DNA of 4,630 bases from a virus. Lineage: Duplodnaviria > Heunggongvirae > Uroviricota > Caudoviricetes. The number at the start of each line of letters is the position of its first letter. Position 1 is the stretch's first letter. The notes beneath the pieces were generated by a model. The model saw only the letters and a list, made by a program, of their open reading frames with translations, did not search any database and was not told where the DNA came from. The DNA lies in the IMG/VR virus record IMGVR_UViG_2663763286_000024, one strand, 5' to 3'. This document shows, one piece after another, positions 1 to 4,630 of this stretch. A program made the position numbers and the translations under genes.

Positions 1-2
1 TA

Positions 3-119
3 ACGTGGGTGGACTGGTATAACAATCGACGATTGCTGGAAAGGCTGGGCCATATTCCTCCGGCAGAAGCAGAAAAAGCTTATTATGCTTCCATCGGAAA
101 TAATGATCTGGCAGCCTGA
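3..119 (+). CDS. IS3-family transposase OrfB, C-terminal fragment (5' end outside window)
   Basis: Frame 3 is open from the window edge to TGA at 117-119 and translates TWVDWYNNRRLLERLGHIPPAEAEKAYYASIGNNDLAA. The YNxxR...LG..P.E pattern is typical of IS3-family OrfB C-termini. The other two frames have stops within 25 nt. Confidence 0.75.
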   Translation, partial: TWVDWYNNRRLLERLGHIPPAEAEKAYYASIGNNDLAA

Positions 120-136
120 GTTCACAGATAAAATAC

Positions 137-161
137 TCTCCAGGAAACCCGGGGCGGTTCA
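137..161 (+). repeat. Right terminal inverted repeat (IRR) of IS copy 1
   Basis: Reverse complement of 137-161 is TGAACCGCCCCGGGTTTCCTGGAGA, against TGAACCGCCCCGGAAATCCTGGAGA at 4250-4274. Confidence 0.7.
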
Positions 162-238
162 CCCGGCAATTTCTGCAATCTGCGAAGCTGGCGATCGGTC
201 AGACTTAAATGCCTGACAACTTCAGTCTGCGTAGCCAC
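162..238 (-). pseudogene. Probable 5' stub of terminase small-subunit (Nu1/NohD-like) gene, truncated by the IS insertion at 161/162
   Basis: On the minus strand a GTG at 238-236 is preceded by GAGGTGAGGA (Shine-Dalgarno-like) and an in-frame stop one codon upstream. The frame then stays open for 25 codons (VATQTEVVRHLSLTDRQLRRLQKLP) to the IS junction. The start lies about 195 bp from the cosN end, matching lambda geometry where Nu1 starts about 190 bp from the left cohesive end. Sequence similarity to Nu1 was not verified. Confidence 0.25.
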
Positions 239-285
239 TCCTCACCTCGCAAAAACTCTCACCTCACAATTAGCACAAAACCGAT

Positions 286-384
286 CATGTCCGGTTTATA
301 TGTCCATTTTTTGCGCATGTCCGGTTCACGGAAAGCCCGTTCTTATATTTTTCATGTAGTTAACTTGCAGAGAAACCGGACATG
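286..384. repeat. cosB-like terminase-binding repeats: three copies of CATGTCCGGTT (two direct at 286-296 and 316-326, one inverted at 374-384)
   Basis: Exact 11-mer present three times. Positions relative to cosN (about 49-59, 107-117 and 137-147 nt) and orientation (nearest copy inverted relative to the other two) mirror the lambda R3/R2/R1 arrangement. The AT-rich spacer 327-373 lies where lambda has the IHF site I1. Confidence 0.6.
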
Positions 385-470
385 GTTCCCGGAAAATTTT
401 CATAAATAGCGAAAACCCGCGAGGTCGCCGCCCCGTAACCTGTCGGATCGCCGGAAAGGACCCGCAAAAT
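286..470 (-). other. cos site (cosB - cosN - cosQ side) of a lambdoid phage
   Basis: Reverse complement of 422-433 is GGGCGGCGACCT, the lambda 12-nt cohesive end. The roughly 45 nt on the cosB side (377-421) and 30 nt on the other side (434-465, CGTAACCTGTCGGATCGCCGGAAAGGACCCG) match my recollection of the lambda left and right termini with few differences. Confidence 0.75.
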
Positions 471-632
471 GATAATAATTATCATCTACATGTCACAACG
501 TGCATCTACGCCATCAAACCACGTCAAATAATTAATTATGACGCAGGTATCGTATTAATTGATCTGCATCAACTTAACGTAAAAACAACTTCAGACAATA
601 CAAATCAGCGACACTGAATACGGGGCAACCTC

Positions 633-827
633 ATGTCAACGAAGAACAGAACCCGCAGAACAACAACCCGCAACATCCGCTTTCCTAACCAAATGATTGA
701 ACAAATTAACATCGCTCTTGATCAAAAAGGGTCCGGAAATTTCTCAGCCTGGGTCATTGAAGCCTGCCGTCGGAGGCTAACGTCAGAAAAGAGAGCATAT
801 ACATCAATTAAAAGTGATGAAGAATGA
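633..827 (+). CDS. ylcI: Small basic ribbon-helix-helix-like DNA-binding protein (YlcI/DUF3950-like), 64 aa
   Basis: ATG at 633 with GGGG 7 nt upstream, 64 codons to TGA. Arg/Thr-rich N-terminus, then a predicted beta-strand (IRFP), helix (NQMIEQINIALDQ), G-x-S/N turn (KGSGN) and helix (FSAWVIEACRRRL), as in Arc/MetJ/CopG proteins. Size and position next to cos match the DLP12 ylcI locus as I recall it; the symbol is tentative. Confidence 0.6.
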   Translation: MSTKNRTRRTTTRNIRFPNQMIEQINIALDQKGSGNFSAWVIEACRRRLTSEKRAYTSIKSDEE

Positions 828-991
828 ACATCCCGCGTTCTTCCCTCCGAACAGGACGATATTGTAAATTCACTTAATTACGAGGGCATTGCAGTAATTG
901 AGTTGCAGTTTTACCACTTTCCTGACAGTGACAGACTGCGTGTTGGCTCTGTCACAGGTTAAGTAGTTTGAATGATTAGCAGTTATGGTGA

Positions 992-1198
992 TCAGTCAAC
1001 CACCAGGGAATAATCCTTCATATTATTATCGTGCTTCACCAACGCTGCCTCAATTGCCCTGAATGCTTCCAGAGACACCTTATGTTCTATACATGCAATT
1101 ACAACATCAGGGTAACTCATAGAAATGGTGCTATTAAGCATATTTTTTACACGAATCAGATCCACGGAGGGATCATCAGCAGATTGTTCTTTATTCAT
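992..1198 (-). CDS. ybcW: Small acidic hypothetical protein, 68 aa (YbcW-like lambdoid moron)
   Basis: ATG at 1198-1196 (minus) with GGAG 7 nt upstream, 68 codons. Synteny (between the cos-proximal RHH gene and the DUF1398-like gene near bor) and length match DLP12 ybcW and a lambda right-end ORF as recalled. AT-rich. Confidence 0.6.
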
Positions 1199-1246
1199 TT
1201 TGTCGCTCCATGCGCTTGCTCTTCATCTAGCGGTTAAAATATTACT

Positions 1247-1272
1247 TCAAATCTTTCTGTATGAAGATTTGA
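1247..1272. promoter_or_regulatory. Perfect 9-bp inverted repeat TCAAATCTT-N8-AAGATTTGA in the divergent intergenic region between the 68-aa and 136-aa genes
   Basis: Seen directly: 1247-1255 and 1264-1272 are exact reverse complements. Located 49 bp upstream of the minus-strand start at 1198. Candidate operator or 5' leader hairpin. Confidence 0.3.
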
Positions 1273-1483
1273 GCACGTTGGCCTTACATACATCTGTCGG
1301 TTGTATTTCCCTCCAGAATGCCAGCAGGACCGCACTTTGTTACGCAACCAATACTATTAATTGAAAACATTCCTAATATTTGACATAAATCATCAACAAA
1401 ACACAAAGAGGTCAGACCAGATTGAAACGATAAAAACGATAATGCAAACTACGCGCCCTCGTATCACATGGAAGGTTTTACCA

Positions 1484-1894
1484 ATGGCTCAGGTTGCCAT
1501 TTTTAAAGAAATATTCGATCAAGTGCGAAAAGATTTAAACTGTGAATTGTTTTATTCTGAACTAAAACGTCACAATGTCTCACATTATATTTACTATCTA
1601 GCCACAGATAATATTCACATTGTGTTAGAAAACGATAACACTGTGTTAATAAAAGGACTTAAAAAGGTTGTAAATGTTAAATTCTCAAGAAATACGCATC
1701 TTATAGAAACGTCCTATGATAGGTTGAAATCAAGAGAAATCACATTTCAGCAATACAGGGAAAATCTTGCTAAAGCAGGAGTTTTCCGATGGGTTACAAA
1801 TATCCACGAACATAAAAGATATTACTATGCCTTTGATAATTCATTACTATTTACTGAGAGCATTCAGAACACTACACAAATCTTTCCACGCTAA
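1484..1894 (+). CDS. ybcV: Hypothetical protein, DUF1398/YbcV-like lambdoid moron (136 aa from the ATG at 1484; the frame is open from 1361)
   Basis: The frame is open 1361..1894. The ATG at 1484 has a strong Shine-Dalgarno (GGAAGG at 1470-1475, 8-nt spacer) and gives 136 aa, matching the recalled length of E. coli YbcV. Alternative starts are TTG 1361 (177 aa) and ATG 1442 (150 aa, no SD). Strongly AT-rich compared with the neighbouring lysis genes. Confidence 0.7.
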
Positions 1895-2185
1895 ATCATA
1901 ACGTCCGGTTTCTTCCGTGTCAGCACCGGGGCGTTGGCATAATGCAATACGTGTACGCGCTAAACCCTGTGTGCATCGTTATTAATTATTCCCGGACACT
2001 CCCGCAGAGGAGTTTCCCTGTCAGGGCTGCGGACATAGTTAATCCGGGAATACAGTGACGATCCTTCGCATCTGACATACATTAATAAATATTAACAATA
2101 TGAGATTTCAACTCATTGTTTAGGGTTTGTTTAATTTTCTACACATACGATTCTGCGAACTTTAAAAAGCATCGGGAATAACACC

Positions 2186-2479
2186 ATGAAAAAAATGCTA
2201 CTCGCTACTGCGCTGGCCCTGCTTATTACAGGATGTGCCCAACAGACGTTTACTGTTCAAAACAAACCGGCAGCAGTAACACCAAAGGAAACCATCACCC
2301 ACCATTTCTTCGTCTCTGGAATTGGGCAGAAGAAAACTGTCGATGCAGCCAAAATTTGTGGCGGCGCAGAAAATGTTGTTAAAACAGAAACCCAGCAAAC
2401 ATTCGTAAATGGATTGCTCGGTTTTATTACTTTAGGCATTTATACTCCGCTGGAAGCGCGTGTGTATTGCTCACAATAA
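2186..2479 (+). CDS. bor: Bor outer-membrane lipoprotein (lambda Bor / Iss family, serum-resistance associated), 97 aa
   Basis: Translation MKKMLLATALALLITGCAQQTFTVQNKPAAV... matches lambda Bor as I recall it. Signal peptide with lipobox LITGC. Opposite strand to the lysis cassette and immediately downstream of Rz, as in lambda. Confidence 0.93.
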   Translation: MKKMLLATALALLITGCAQQTFTVQNKPAAVTPKETITHHFFVSGIGQKKTVDAAKICGGAENVVKTETQQTFVNGLLGFITLGIYTPLEARVYCSQ

Positions 2480-2486
2480 TTGCATG

Positions 2487-2510
2487 AGTTGCCCATCGAT
2501 ATGGGCAACT
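2487..2510. terminator. Hairpin (10-bp stem AGTTGCCCAT / ATGGGCAACT, 4-nt loop) between convergent bor and Rz; possible bidirectional terminator
   Basis: Perfect inverted repeat at 2487-2496 and 2501-2510, 8 nt after the bor stop and immediately after the Rz stop. There is no clear U-tract on either side, so the terminator call is weak. Confidence 0.35.
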
Positions 2511-2972
2511 CTATCTGCACTGCTCATTAATATACTTCTGGGTTCCTTCCAGTTGTTTTTGCATAGTGATCAGCCTCTCTCTGAGGGTGAAATAATCCCG
2601 TTCAGCGGTGTCTGCCAGTCGGGGGGAGGCTGCATTATCCACGCCGGAGGCGGTGGTGGCTTCACGCACTGACTGACAGACTGCTTTGATGTGCAACCGA
2701 CGACGACCAGCGGCAACATCATCACGCAGAGCATCATTTTCAGCTTTAGCATCAGCTAACTCCTTCGTGTATTTTGCATCGAGCGCAGCAACATCACGCT
2801 GACGCATCTGCATGTCAGTAATTGCCGCGTTCGCCAGCTTCAGTTCTCTGGCATTTTTGTCGCGCTGGGCCTTGTAGGTAATGGCGTTATCACGGTAATG
2901 ATTAACAGCCCAAGACAGGCAGACGATGATGCAAATAACCAGAGCGGAGATAATCGCGGTTACTCTGCTCAT
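2511..2972 (-). CDS. Rz: Rz spanin, inner-membrane subunit (i-spanin), 153 aa
   Basis: Translation [55 protein letters not shown]... matches lambda Rz as recalled. Start overlaps the R stop (ATGA). Confidence 0.93.
2570..2752 (-). CDS. Rz1: Rz1 spanin, outer-membrane lipoprotein subunit (o-spanin), 60 aa, embedded in Rz in the +1 frame
   Basis: Translation [60 protein letters not shown] has a lipobox (VVGC) and a proline-rich segment, and matches lambda Rz1 as recalled. Confidence 0.88.
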
Positions 2973-3445
2973 ACCTCAATCTCTCTGACCGTTCCGCCAG
3001 CTTCTTTGAATTTTGCAATCAGGCTGTCAGCCTTATGCTCGAACTGACCATAACCAGCGCCCGGCAGTGAAGCCCAGATATTGCTGCAACGGTCAATTGC
3101 CTGACGAATATCACCGCGATCAATCATCGGTAAAGCGCCACGTTCTTTAATCTGCTGCAATGCCACTGCGTCCTGGCTTTTGGGGGAGAAGTCTTTCAGG
3201 CCAAGCTGCTTACGGTAAGCATCCCACCAGCGTGAAAGAAGCTGATAACGTCCGGCTGCTGTTGATTTGAGTTTGGGGTTTAGCGTGACAAGTTTGCGAG
3301 GGTGATCGGAGTAATCAGTAAATAGCTCTCCGCCTACAATGACGTCATAACCATGATTTCTGGTTTTCTGCCGTCCGTTATCCGTTCCTTCTGACCATGC
3401 CACCATATCGAGGAAAGCTTTACGCTGAGGATTAAGATTTTGCAT
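2969..3445 (-). CDS. R: Endolysin R (lambda-type lytic transglycosylase), 158 aa
   Basis: Translation ...[46 protein letters not shown]... matches lambda R as recalled, including the catalytic-Glu region WSEGT. Only the first 7 residues differ (MQNLNPQ here, MVEINNQ in lambda as recalled). Start lies inside the 3' end of the holin gene. Confidence 0.93.
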
Positions 3446-3749
3446 TTTTCACCCCTGTCAGTCGTTCCCAGAAGTATGTCAGTGCAACCGAACCCATCGC
3501 ACCACTAATCCCCGCTGTCGCGAGAATCATGTAAATACTGAATCCACTTTCGATACTGATCAGGCCACCAATAACACCGGTGAATCCCGACACCACTATC
3601 TGAGCCAAAGCATTTATCCAGCTCCACGTTGCTTTACTCTGCTTCACATCTATCAGGTAGCGGACCAGACCGCCCCAACCTGCGATGATCAGCAAAACGA
3701 GCCAGAACGCTCCGGCAAGGCTCTCTTTTTCGTGCATATGAATAGCCAA
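3432..3749 (-). CDS. Holin, class I topology (three predicted TMDs), about 101-105 aa; not lambda S by sequence
   Basis: Sits in the S position directly upstream of and overlapping R. Three hydrophobic segments (LAGAFWLVLLIIAGWGGLV, WINALAQIVVSGFTGVIGGLI, FSIYMILATAGISGAMGSVAL) and a short charged C-terminal tail. The ORF-track start at 3749 is a TTG; the first ATG is at 3737 (codon 5). Sequence is unlike lambda S (MKMPEKHDLLAAILAAKEQG...). Confidence 0.8.
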   Translation of the reverse strand: MAIHMHEKESLAGAFWLVLLIIAGWGGLVRYLIDVKQSKATWSWINALAQIVVSGFTGVIGGLISIESGFSIYMILATAGISGAMGSVALTYFWERLTGVKNAKS

Positions 3750-3854
3750 TGTTTCGCCGCCGACAAAAGGCCGGGACGTTAAATGTCAGAAATCAGGCTC
3801 ACGGGGTAATTTAACGACAAAGCACGGAGTTGATGCTCCCCGCAAGCCTGGAAT

Positions 3855-3877
3855 AAAAAAGCCAGCATGTAGCTGGC
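3855..3877 (-). terminator. Rho-independent terminator on the minus strand (tR'-like), upstream of the holin gene
   Basis: Minus strand reads GCCAGC-TACAT-GCTGGC followed by TTTTTTATT (stem 3877-3872 and 3866-3861, U-tract 3860-3855). Lies about 105 nt upstream of the holin start, analogous to lambda tR' at the end of the 6S leader. Confidence 0.5.
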
Positions 3878-3953
3878 AACAGAGGGTTAAGCAATATCAA
3901 CTCAACAGCTGAAGACACCCTGGCTGGGGTACGTTGGAAGGATACTCACCGCC

Positions 3954-3989
3954 CAGAAACAGAAAAGCCCAAGGCTTTAAACCTCGGGC
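3954..3989 (-). terminator. Second hairpin plus U-rich tract on the minus strand (8-bp stem with one G-U, 7-nt loop)
   Basis: Minus strand reads GCCCGAGG-TTTAAAG-CCTTGGGC followed by TTTTCTGTTTCTG. Lies between the candidate late promoter and the tR'-like terminator. Confidence 0.35.
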
Positions 3990-4046
3990 TTGAATTTGGA
4001 TTACGGCCAGTGCGTACAACATTGGCAAAATATCAGATTTACATAA

Positions 4047-4075
4047 AATATATGATTTTTAATCCAGTTTTGCAA
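4047..4075 (-). promoter_or_regulatory. Candidate sigma70 late promoter (pR'-like): TTGCAA - 17 bp - TATATT on the minus strand
   Basis: -35 at 4075-4070 and -10 at 4052-4047 on the minus strand, with a predicted start near 4040, about 185 nt upstream of the terminator U-tract at 3855 (lambda 6S RNA is about 194 nt). A weaker alternative is TTGCCA (4028-4023) - 17 bp - CGTAAT (4005-4000). Motif inspection only. Confidence 0.3.
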
Positions 4076-4249
4076 TATCTTGCTGTGAAAATGTGGTCTT
4101 TTGTTTTGAACGTGTTTTCGTTAAAAGCAATAAAGCTTGGCTATCAAGCTGTAGAAAAATGTGCTTCATTGCAACCCAGCGTTCAGTAAATGTCTCAGAC
4201 CAGTTTTTTGATGTCACTCCCACCAGTGATGCCAACTCCTGGTATTCAT
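4059..4249 (-). pseudogene. 3' fragment of an ORF truncated by IS copy 2; positionally where the late antiterminator Q gene would be
   Basis: The minus-strand frame is open from the IS junction (4249) for 62 codons (EYQELASLVGVTSKNWSETFTERWVAMKHIFLQLDSQALLLLTKTRSKQKTTFSQQDIAKLD) to TAA at 4061-4059. It has no start codon, because its 5' part would lie beyond the IS. It does not resemble lambda Q as I recall it, so identity is unverified. Confidence 0.3.
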
Positions 4250-4274
4250 TGAACCGCCCCGGAAATCCTGGAGA
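4250..4274 (+). repeat. Left terminal inverted repeat (IRL) of IS copy 2
   Basis: TGAACCGCCCCGGAAATCCTGGAGA; 22 of 25 positions match the reverse complement of 137-161; TG...CA termini typical of the IS3 family. Confidence 0.7.
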
Positions 4275-4303
4275 CTAAACTCCCTGAGAAAGAGGTAAAC
4301 AGG

Positions 4304-4630
4304 ATGACTAAAAATACACGTTTTTCCCCCGAGGTCCGTCAACGGGCAGTTCGTATGGTTCTGGAAAGTCAGGGCGAATATGACTCACAATGGGCGGCAA
4401 TTTGTTCCATTGCCCCAAAGATTGGCTGTACACCAGAGACTCTGCGTGTGTGGGTTCGTCAGCATGAGCGGGATACCGGGAGTGGTGATGGTGGACTCAC
4501 CACCGCTGAACGTCAGCGTCTGAAAGAGCTGGAACGTGAAAATCGTGAACTGCGCCGCAGTAACGATATCCTTCGCCAGGCTTCCGCTTATTTTGCGAAG
4601 GCGGAGTTCGACCGCCTCTGGAAAAAATGA
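4304..4630 (+). CDS. IS3-family transposase OrfA (HTH DNA-binding and leucine-zipper protein), 108 aa
   Basis: ATG at 4304 with AGAGG about 9 nt upstream. N-terminal helix-turn-helix region and C-terminal heptad-like [25 protein letters not shown]. Ends with TGA at the window edge, directly after an A6 run (4622-4627) that would be the IS3-type -1 frameshift site into OrfB. Confidence 0.88.

Follow-up and report, generated by a model that had tools for sequence, protein, structure and literature searches.

The window analyzed here is the whole 4,630-nucleotide stretch of the viral record IMGVR_UViG_2663763286_000024, a fragment of a lambdoid prophage that reads from right to left, as judged from its open reading frames and from the names given to them by matching RefSeq annotation. 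On its minus strand, positions 279-463 very likely form a complete, sequence-intact lambda-like cohesive-end (cos) site, with boxes for a small terminase subunit (TerS) of the Nu1 family, most likely a packaging-initiation specificity of its own, and an orphaned location. We consider a separate specificity most likely because the associated TerS has an N-terminal winged-helix domain, with RQLRRLQK as its recognition helix, that is unlike those of lambda, phi80, 21, N15 and Gifsy-1. The explanation is based on the anatomy of the site, its conservation, the covariation of its boxes with TerS and the modeled DNA-binding fold; binding, cleavage and specificity are what we infer from them. The window cos is a prophage relic and not a working mobilization device.

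Anatomy of the cos site

We counted base pairs from the base at which the cohesive-end sequence GGGCGGCGACCT begins, so that bp n corresponds to window position 434-n (Table 1), and aligned the region with the cos sites of lambda (DE3 prophage record), phage 21 (M81255, where the R sites and those for integration host factor, IHF, are annotated) and PhiR12_1. The interval 286-470 spans cosB, cosN and cosQ. The 12 bases of GGGCGGCGACCT occur once in the window, against 0.01 matches expected by chance, and all 12 are the same in lambda, 21, phi80 and PhiR12_1. After the nick, bp 1-45 are identical between window and lambda, and two of the 32 bases between cosQ and the nick differ; the exact coordinates of cosQ in lambda are those that we presume. 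The initial annotation, which had described the cohesive end and its immediate flanks as lambda-identical, is borne out by this single exact match and by the identity of bp 1-45. The window, lambda, 21 and PhiR12_1 all carry the cosQ-region sequence CGGGTCCTTTCC without change, as does the cosQ-containing upstream sequence of relatives, and the phage 21 record annotates I2 at the equivalent place. Both cosQ and I2 are required for packaging termination (PMC4669245). From approximately bp 46 onward, the window, lambda, 21 and PhiR12_1 diverge in the alignment. On sequence grounds, the region would qualify as a lambda-like cos, with the 12-base cohesive-end sequence, cosQ and the I2 segment at lambda spacing, and a box at the R3 position around 50 bp from the nick.

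Table 1. Features of the window, with bp counted from the base at which the cohesive-end sequence begins
Feature	Window positions	Strand	bp	Description
IS629/IS1203, 3' end	1-161	+		Transposase C-terminus and right inverted repeat; truncates terS
terS' stub	162-238	-	196 (start)	GTG start at 238; 25 codons VATQTEVVRHLSLTDRQLRRLQKLP with recognition helix RQLRRLQK, then IS629
R1	279-296	+	138-148 (exact box)	Exact box at 286-296, oriented as R2; overlapping degenerate forward box CATGATCGGTT (two mismatches) at 279-289 (-)
R2	316-326	+	108-118	Exact box, AACCGGACATG in cos direction; inverted relative to R3
I1-like IHF core	350-362	+	72-84	TTTCATGTAGTTA, bottom strand; preceded by an A/T-rich tract
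R3	369-384	-	50-65	CATGTCCGGTTTCTCT, forward; exact box at 374-384 (bp 50-60); putative critical TerS site
cosN-cosB spacer with I2 segment	385-421	-	13-49	bp 13-45 as in lambda
cosN cohesive-end sequence	422-433	-	1-12	GGGCGGCGACCT, read from 433 to 422
cosQ core	457-463	-	-30 to -24	GGGTCCT, 24-30 bp upstream of the nick
bor	2186-2479	+		Open reading frame, RefSeq name
Rz, with Rz1 embedded	2511-2972	-		Open reading frame, RefSeq name
Endolysin	2969-3445	-		Open reading frame, RefSeq name
Holin	3432-3749	-		Open reading frame, RefSeq name
Second IS629/IS1203 copy, 5' end	4251-4630	+		Left inverted repeat, orfA at 4304-4630; truncates Q

The window holds three exact copies of the box CATGTCCGGTT. 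When up to two mismatches are allowed, five matches are found and 1.28 are expected; none of 200 shuffles of the window reached five, and the repeats are therefore real. In the direction from cos to terS, the first box is forward and the second and third are inverted, so that the three copies reported by the initial annotation are exact but do not all share one orientation. The R3 and R2 boxes are 100% complementary, and R2 is thus inverted as in the published complex cosB, where it is opposite to both R3 and R1 (PMC4669245, PMC9026076). R1 departs from this layout, as its exact box points in the same direction as R2 and the forward copy found there carries two mismatches. In the relatives from Enterobacter (L091) and Klebsiella (L093), R1 is present in the R2-like orientation alone. 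As to position, the lambda R3 covers bp 50-65 (PMC9026076), R2 lies at bp 108-118 in the window, bp 110-125 in lambda and bp 107-122 in 21, and R1 at bp 138-148 in the window and bp 150-165 in both phages. The repeats therefore coincide with known R-site positions, bp 50 and 108 corresponding to R3 and R2 of lambda and 21 and bp 138 lying near R1, as their earlier designation as terminase-binding repeats presupposed.

Between R3 and R2, the IHF-type core of the window has two mismatches to WATCAANNNNTTR, and the window contains no core with one mismatch or fewer. Across ten loci of this cos class (described below), the core is perfect in four, has one mismatch in another four and two mismatches in the window and PhiR12_1. 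In nine of the ten, the best core lies on the bottom strand with its start at bp 72; the exception is the Enterobacter locus, where a core with one mismatch lies elsewhere. We take the lambda I1 core to be AAACATTAAGTTA at bp 74-86, by our own identification, which is 2 bp off the position of the window core.

The site would thus be ordered as cosQ, cosN and I2, followed by a tripartite cosB made of R3, an IHF site, an inverted R2 and R1. By analogy with lambda, IHF may bend the DNA between R3 and R2, allowing a TerS dimer to dock on the two inverted boxes; the docked TerS would then bring the gpA-type large subunit into place for nicking cosN at a distance of 50 bp, with R1 assisting. The same architecture bears on whether the site could be the cos of a phage-inducible chromosomal island (PICI), read by an Rpp-TerS heterocomplex that hijacks a helper phage. 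In PICIs, cosB is a single R3 without I1, R2 and R1, and rpp begins at around bp 102 (PMC9026076). Here cosB is tripartite, a Nu1-family terS lies downstream at bp 196, a gpA-type terL and head genes come after terS in the intact relatives, and the surroundings are the lysis genes and bor of a lambdoid prophage. We therefore assign hardly any probability to a PICI origin.

Further variation is visible in cosB. R1 of the E. coli lineage is a near-palindrome, AAACCGGACATGA(C/T)CGGTTT, in which two overlapping boxes have CATG in common (279-296 in the window, approximately 3190-3210 in the PhiR12_1 locus, L002), and other genera have only its inverted half. Four loci from Salmonella and metagenome (L092, L095, L096 and L097) have a shorter, two-box cosB, R3-IHF-R2 only, with the terS start at bp 145-159; this form is intermediate between the N15 type, which has a single box, and the lambda type with its three. 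Two direct copies of CTCACCTC(G/A)CAA, at 241-252 and 258-269, lie shortly before the terS GTG and form two GAGGTGAG Shine-Dalgarno-like elements on the minus strand, which are also kept in PhiR12_1.

Covariation of the boxes with the small terminase

To describe the conservation of the boxes we relied on two sets of sequences. The first derived from a scan of IMG/VR with the linked TerS as query and comprised 80 loci and 41 distinct cos sequences; the TerS copies in it are all 99% identical, which suits footprinting but not the study of deep divergence. In the 41 cos variants, R3, a block at bp 66-91 that includes the I1 core, R2 and R1 are invariant, and variation is found at bp 92-105 and 119-137. 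A scan of genome contigs returned only four loci, two of which belong to another class, of N15 type. The second set consisted of ten loci from Escherichia, Citrobacter, Enterobacter, Salmonella, Klebsiella and metagenome, namely the window, PhiR12_1 and the DNA upstream of TerS homologs that are 60-81% identical. A forward box starts at bp 50 in all ten, and its inverted counterpart at bp 108; this geometry is kept even in loci where cosN differs at two to three positions or more.

In these ten loci, the sequence of the box changes together with the recognition helix of TerS. The five loci with Arg20 (helix residues 16-23 RQLRRLQK) have the box (C/G)ATGTCCGGTT, and the five in which residue 20 is Asn or Asp carry CA(T/C)TTCCGGTT, in R3 and R2 alike (P-value = 0.008, Fisher test, relatedness between loci being ignored). 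The core of the box is TGTCCGG with Arg20 and becomes TTTCCGG or CTTCCGG with Asn20 or Asp20, and the two classes, CATGTCCGGTT and CATTTCCGGTT, are distinguished by G or T at box position 4. This may reflect a contact between Arg20 of TerS and the guanine at bp 53 (box position 4). The class of the helix does not track the similarity in the C-terminal part of TerS. Over residues 63-169, the Klebsiella TerS is 93% identical to that of PhiR12, yet its helix and its box are of the other kind; for the Enterobacter TerS, identity over these residues is only 59%, yet helix and box are the same. Since the helix class does not track the rest of TerS, the DNA-binding domain travels or evolves jointly with cosB, as would be expected of a specificity module.

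The footprint in the 41 variants, the fixed geometry across genera and the covariation with the TerS helix lead us to conclude from sequence comparison that the CATGTCCGGTT repeats are very probably TerS binding sites. If they bound instead a factor other than terminase, such as a regulator of late genes, or were due to chance or structure, the true TerS site would lie elsewhere. Their location is compatible with such a role, as a regulator could act on the stretch immediately before the start of terS. However, the first box occurs at bp 50, the critical R3 distance, in every locus; the box sequence tracks the recognition helix of TerS, and spacers vary where boxes do not; and to find three exact 11-mers inside 100 bp goes far beyond chance. 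A role unrelated to terminase is thus very improbable.

The intact TerS homologs are 165-169 amino acids long. An intact homolog matches the Pfam family Phage_Nu1 (PF07471) with 68 bits, over a cut-off of 30, although only along residues 49-150; the window product, limited to codons 1-25, is not a functional member of the Nu1 family. The first 48 residues of this TerS class are 21% identical to both lambda Nu1 and 21 gp1, and the specificity positions 20 and 24 are Arg and Lys in this class, Gln and Glu in lambda, and Glu and Ser in 21. The structural model predicts an N-terminal winged helix-turn-helix domain like that of lambda gpNu1. Searched by sequence with TerS or the family profile, the PDB returned nothing significant, and Foldseek gave no match at E ≤ 0.001. 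In intact relatives, terS is followed by the gene for the large terminase, with GpA_ATPase and GpA_nuclease domains in the eight relatives examined, and in PhiR12_1 the gene after terS is annotated as terminase protein A.

An orphaned site and the direction of packaging

The remnant terS'-cos-ylcI-ybcW-ybcV-bor-Rz/Rz1-R-S-Q' covers 4,089 bp between two IS629 copies in the same orientation; ybcV, ybcW and ylcI (566-724) were identified among the open reading frames in the same way as the lysis genes. On the terS side, the inverted repeat TGAACCGCCCCGGGTTTCCTGG (as reverse complement) ends at position 161, and matching genomes annotate there an IS1203-family IS3 transposase. IS629 cuts terS after codon 25, and the frame continues into a 38-amino-acid peptide, a fusion for which no record was found. 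On the opposite side, the match with a DLP12-like prophage ends at 4249, within the Q gene of that prophage. None of 5,426 complete E. coli genomes and no PLSDB plasmid contains the exact IS629 junctions. The bracketing by IS629 resembles a composite transposon, by which bor could be moved more plausibly than by cos packaging. Of the Q antiterminator gene, just the C-terminal part is left (4059-4250), cut by IS629 at 4250, and the stretch downstream of Q and upstream of the holin gene, where the late promoter and terminator are expected, is retained. As Q is truncated, expression of the late genes would depend on Q supplied in trans.

The closest relatives of the remnant are found in strain 2014C-3011 and similar strains. 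Positions 160-724 of the window are identical to a prophage carrying cif and nleH (L004), and positions 566-4249 follow a DLP12-like prophage at icd (L005), whose own cosB, at nohD, is of lambda type. A 21-type assignment of nohD was discarded, as the query that matches it is the lambda-type one. Since the two parts of the window match different prophages, the crossover occurred inside ylcI (566-724) and not at cosN, which was therefore rejected as a mosaic joint. Judged against the nearest relatives, a single prophage lineage contributed the entire cos, from 160 to at least 565. The initial annotation had read the lambda-type nicking site with different repeats as a mosaic of packaging specificities. 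This holds insofar as the linked TerS has a different DNA-binding domain, but a lambda cosN with another cosB is not unusual, being found also in N15, Gifsy-1 and a prophage of E. albertii. In the L004 prophage of 2014C-3011 (3156-5079), the identical cos adjoins an intact terS, with IS2 directly after it, in the place where terL is expected. The cos class was repeatedly found in decayed prophages.

Unexcised lambda prophages give single-ended 'doc' particles, which suggests that a lone cos would produce defective particles. After nicking, terminase stays on the end that bears cosB and translocates away from cosQ (PMC4669245). To complete a particle, cos terminases need a second cos within packageable distance (PMC4669245, PMC6687093), and a helper packages a passive chromosomal segment only between the initiating and the terminating cos (PMC4669245). 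Initiation at the window cos would require a helper of matching class, and packaging would proceed toward terS' and IS629, at lower coordinates. For bor and the lysis genes, on the cosQ side, packaging would be possible only at the tail end of a run started at a cos in the same orientation, approximately one genome length away on the higher-coordinate side. For such a run, any lambda-like terminase could terminate at the window cos; termination uses cosQ, cosN and I2 and is not cosB-specific (PMC4669245). The mobilization of bor and of the lysis cassette by a helper acting in trans, proposed by the initial annotation, does not follow, because packaging runs away from these genes and a second cos is needed (PMC4669245, PMC6687093). 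The orphan cos would act in trans only: a co-resident phage of its class could initiate there and package toward lower coordinates, or any lambda-like terminase coming from the side of the lysis genes could use it for cosB-independent termination. The window itself holds an ordinary lambda-like site stranded in an IS629-bracketed remnant, with no special route for bor or the lysis genes.

Prevalence and comparison with characterized cos systems

The segment composed of cosB and the 5' part of terS (window 162-388) is present in 1,185 of the 5,426 complete E. coli genomes (22%), with a median of two places per carrier, and the matching segments are annotated plainly as 'terminase small subunit'. 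The equivalent segment of 21 type is found in 1,233 of these genomes (23%), and that of lambda type in 4,021. Among 50,697 phage records, this cosB was found only in PhiR12_1 to PhiR12_5. The cos class therefore matches the classic phage 21 type in its frequency among complete E. coli genomes, yet only five deposited phage genomes represent it. We found no paper describing the box, the TerS class or its function, which is absence of evidence only, as the searchable literature omits most subscription journals; literature matches to the motif were limited to papers on p53 response elements, those on cosB in connection with O157 dealt only with PICIs and nucleoid proteins, and nothing relevant was returned for PhiR12.

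The natural series of helix and box variants offers ready-made specificity swaps for studying how Nu1-type small terminases read their sites, and sharing of a cosB class tells which prophages can package each other's DNA in strains with many lambdoid prophages. A broader reading joins these elements. The pair of cosB and TerS would be the third major separate specificity of lambda-like prophages in E. coli, with Arg20 reading G at box position 4 (bp 53), and the orphan intact cos would be cut by co-resident prophages of the same class, either starting one-directional packaging of the flanking chromosome or ending the runs of neighboring prophages. Taken as a whole, we hold this to be rather unlikely. 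If true, it would provide a cos-dependent route for moving chromosomal DNA in Shiga-toxin-producing E. coli (STEC) strains with multiple prophages.

Several cosB classes beyond those of lambda and 21 have already been published, namely N15, Monarch and Gifsy-1 (PMC4669245, PMC9026076), and the combination of lambda-like cosQ and cosN with a private cosB is the published norm of lambda-like phages rather than an unusual mosaic. Lambda-like cos sites that differ in their cosB specificity thus form a known family, and the window site is a new, apparently uncharacterized member of it. Its R box, CATGTCCGGTT, compares with CGTTTCCGTTCTT in lambda and phi80, C(A/G)TGTCGGnCC in 21, CAGATCC(G/T)TTC in Gifsy-1 and GGTTGTTGTTT in N15; with up to two mismatches, the window motif is absent from the cos regions of lambda, phi80, 21, N15 and Gifsy-1. 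A comparable cos in HK97 was rejected, since only a chance match with two mismatches was found, and 933W was not among the cos or TerS matches listed, its sequence not having been fetched.

With lambda, the window shares the identity of bp 1-45 and of the cosQ core, R3 at bp 50-65 and the inverted R2. The C-terminal two thirds of TerS fall within Pfam Phage_Nu1, and a gpA-type large terminase comes next in the relatives. In contrast, the R boxes are unrelated (CGTTTCC(G/T)TTCT in lambda and CATGTCCGGTT in the window), the orientation of R1 differs, and the first 48 or so residues of this TerS class have no match with the Nu1 profile. As cosB has no similarity to lambda, the site falls outside the lambda specificity class, and the initial annotation was correct in that the three repeats do not resemble the lambda R elements.

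Phage 21 (M81255) has a similar layout, with an identical cosN, near-identical cosQ and I2, and a complex cosB where R3 starts around bp 50 and is followed by an IHF site, putative in the window, and an inverted R2 around bp 108. Both boxes have CATGTC as their left half, whereas the right half is CGGTT in the window and GGnCC in 21; the window R1 is oriented as R2 and not as R3. These similarities could suggest that the window cosB has the specificity of 21, the boxes being a drifted 21 R sequence served by 21-type terminases. CATGTC occurs in 21 R1 and R2 (CATGTCGGGCC and CATGTCGGACC), with 8 of 11 positions matching, and the R3-I1-R2 layout is the same. However, the motif lies 3 bp nearer cosN than in 21, and it is with this shift that 6-8 of the 11 positions match. 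At equal distance from the nick, bp 56, 58 and 59 set the window box apart from lambda as well as from 21; of these, bp 56 and 59 are reported to be critical when lambda and 21 sites are recognized, and bp 58 to be important for lambda (PMC4669245). Moreover, the TerS DNA-binding domain of the class has only the 21% identity reported above, with the helix RQLRRLQK where 21 has RTIERWQS and Arg/Lys instead of Glu/Ser at positions 20/24, and blastn finds no similarity to 21 in cosB. We consequently regard 21 specificity as improbable and favor a separate specificity of the window boxes.

N15/Monarch and Gifsy-1 have in common with the window the cosQ, a lambda-like cosN that is identical or a few bases off, and a private R box with its own TerS helix (PMC4669245); they differ in the sequence of the box, and N15 has R3 only. 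Two further loci, from E. albertii (L008, 1160-1430) and Escherichia sp. (L009), combine lambda-identical cosQ and cosN with the N15-type box GGTTGTTGTTT in forward-inverted-forward order, a tripartite layout that looks like the 'Monarch' type of complex cosB (PMC4669245). The Escherichia phages PhiR12_1 to PhiR12_5 (PV340549-PV340554), whose records list K-12 or E. coli C as hosts, have the same cos class, with boxes at the same bp, a cosB that is 93% identical and a TerS N-terminus that is the same but for one residue. These phages are complete, and their terS, terL and head genes are intact, whereas the window is a 4.1-kb remnant without them.
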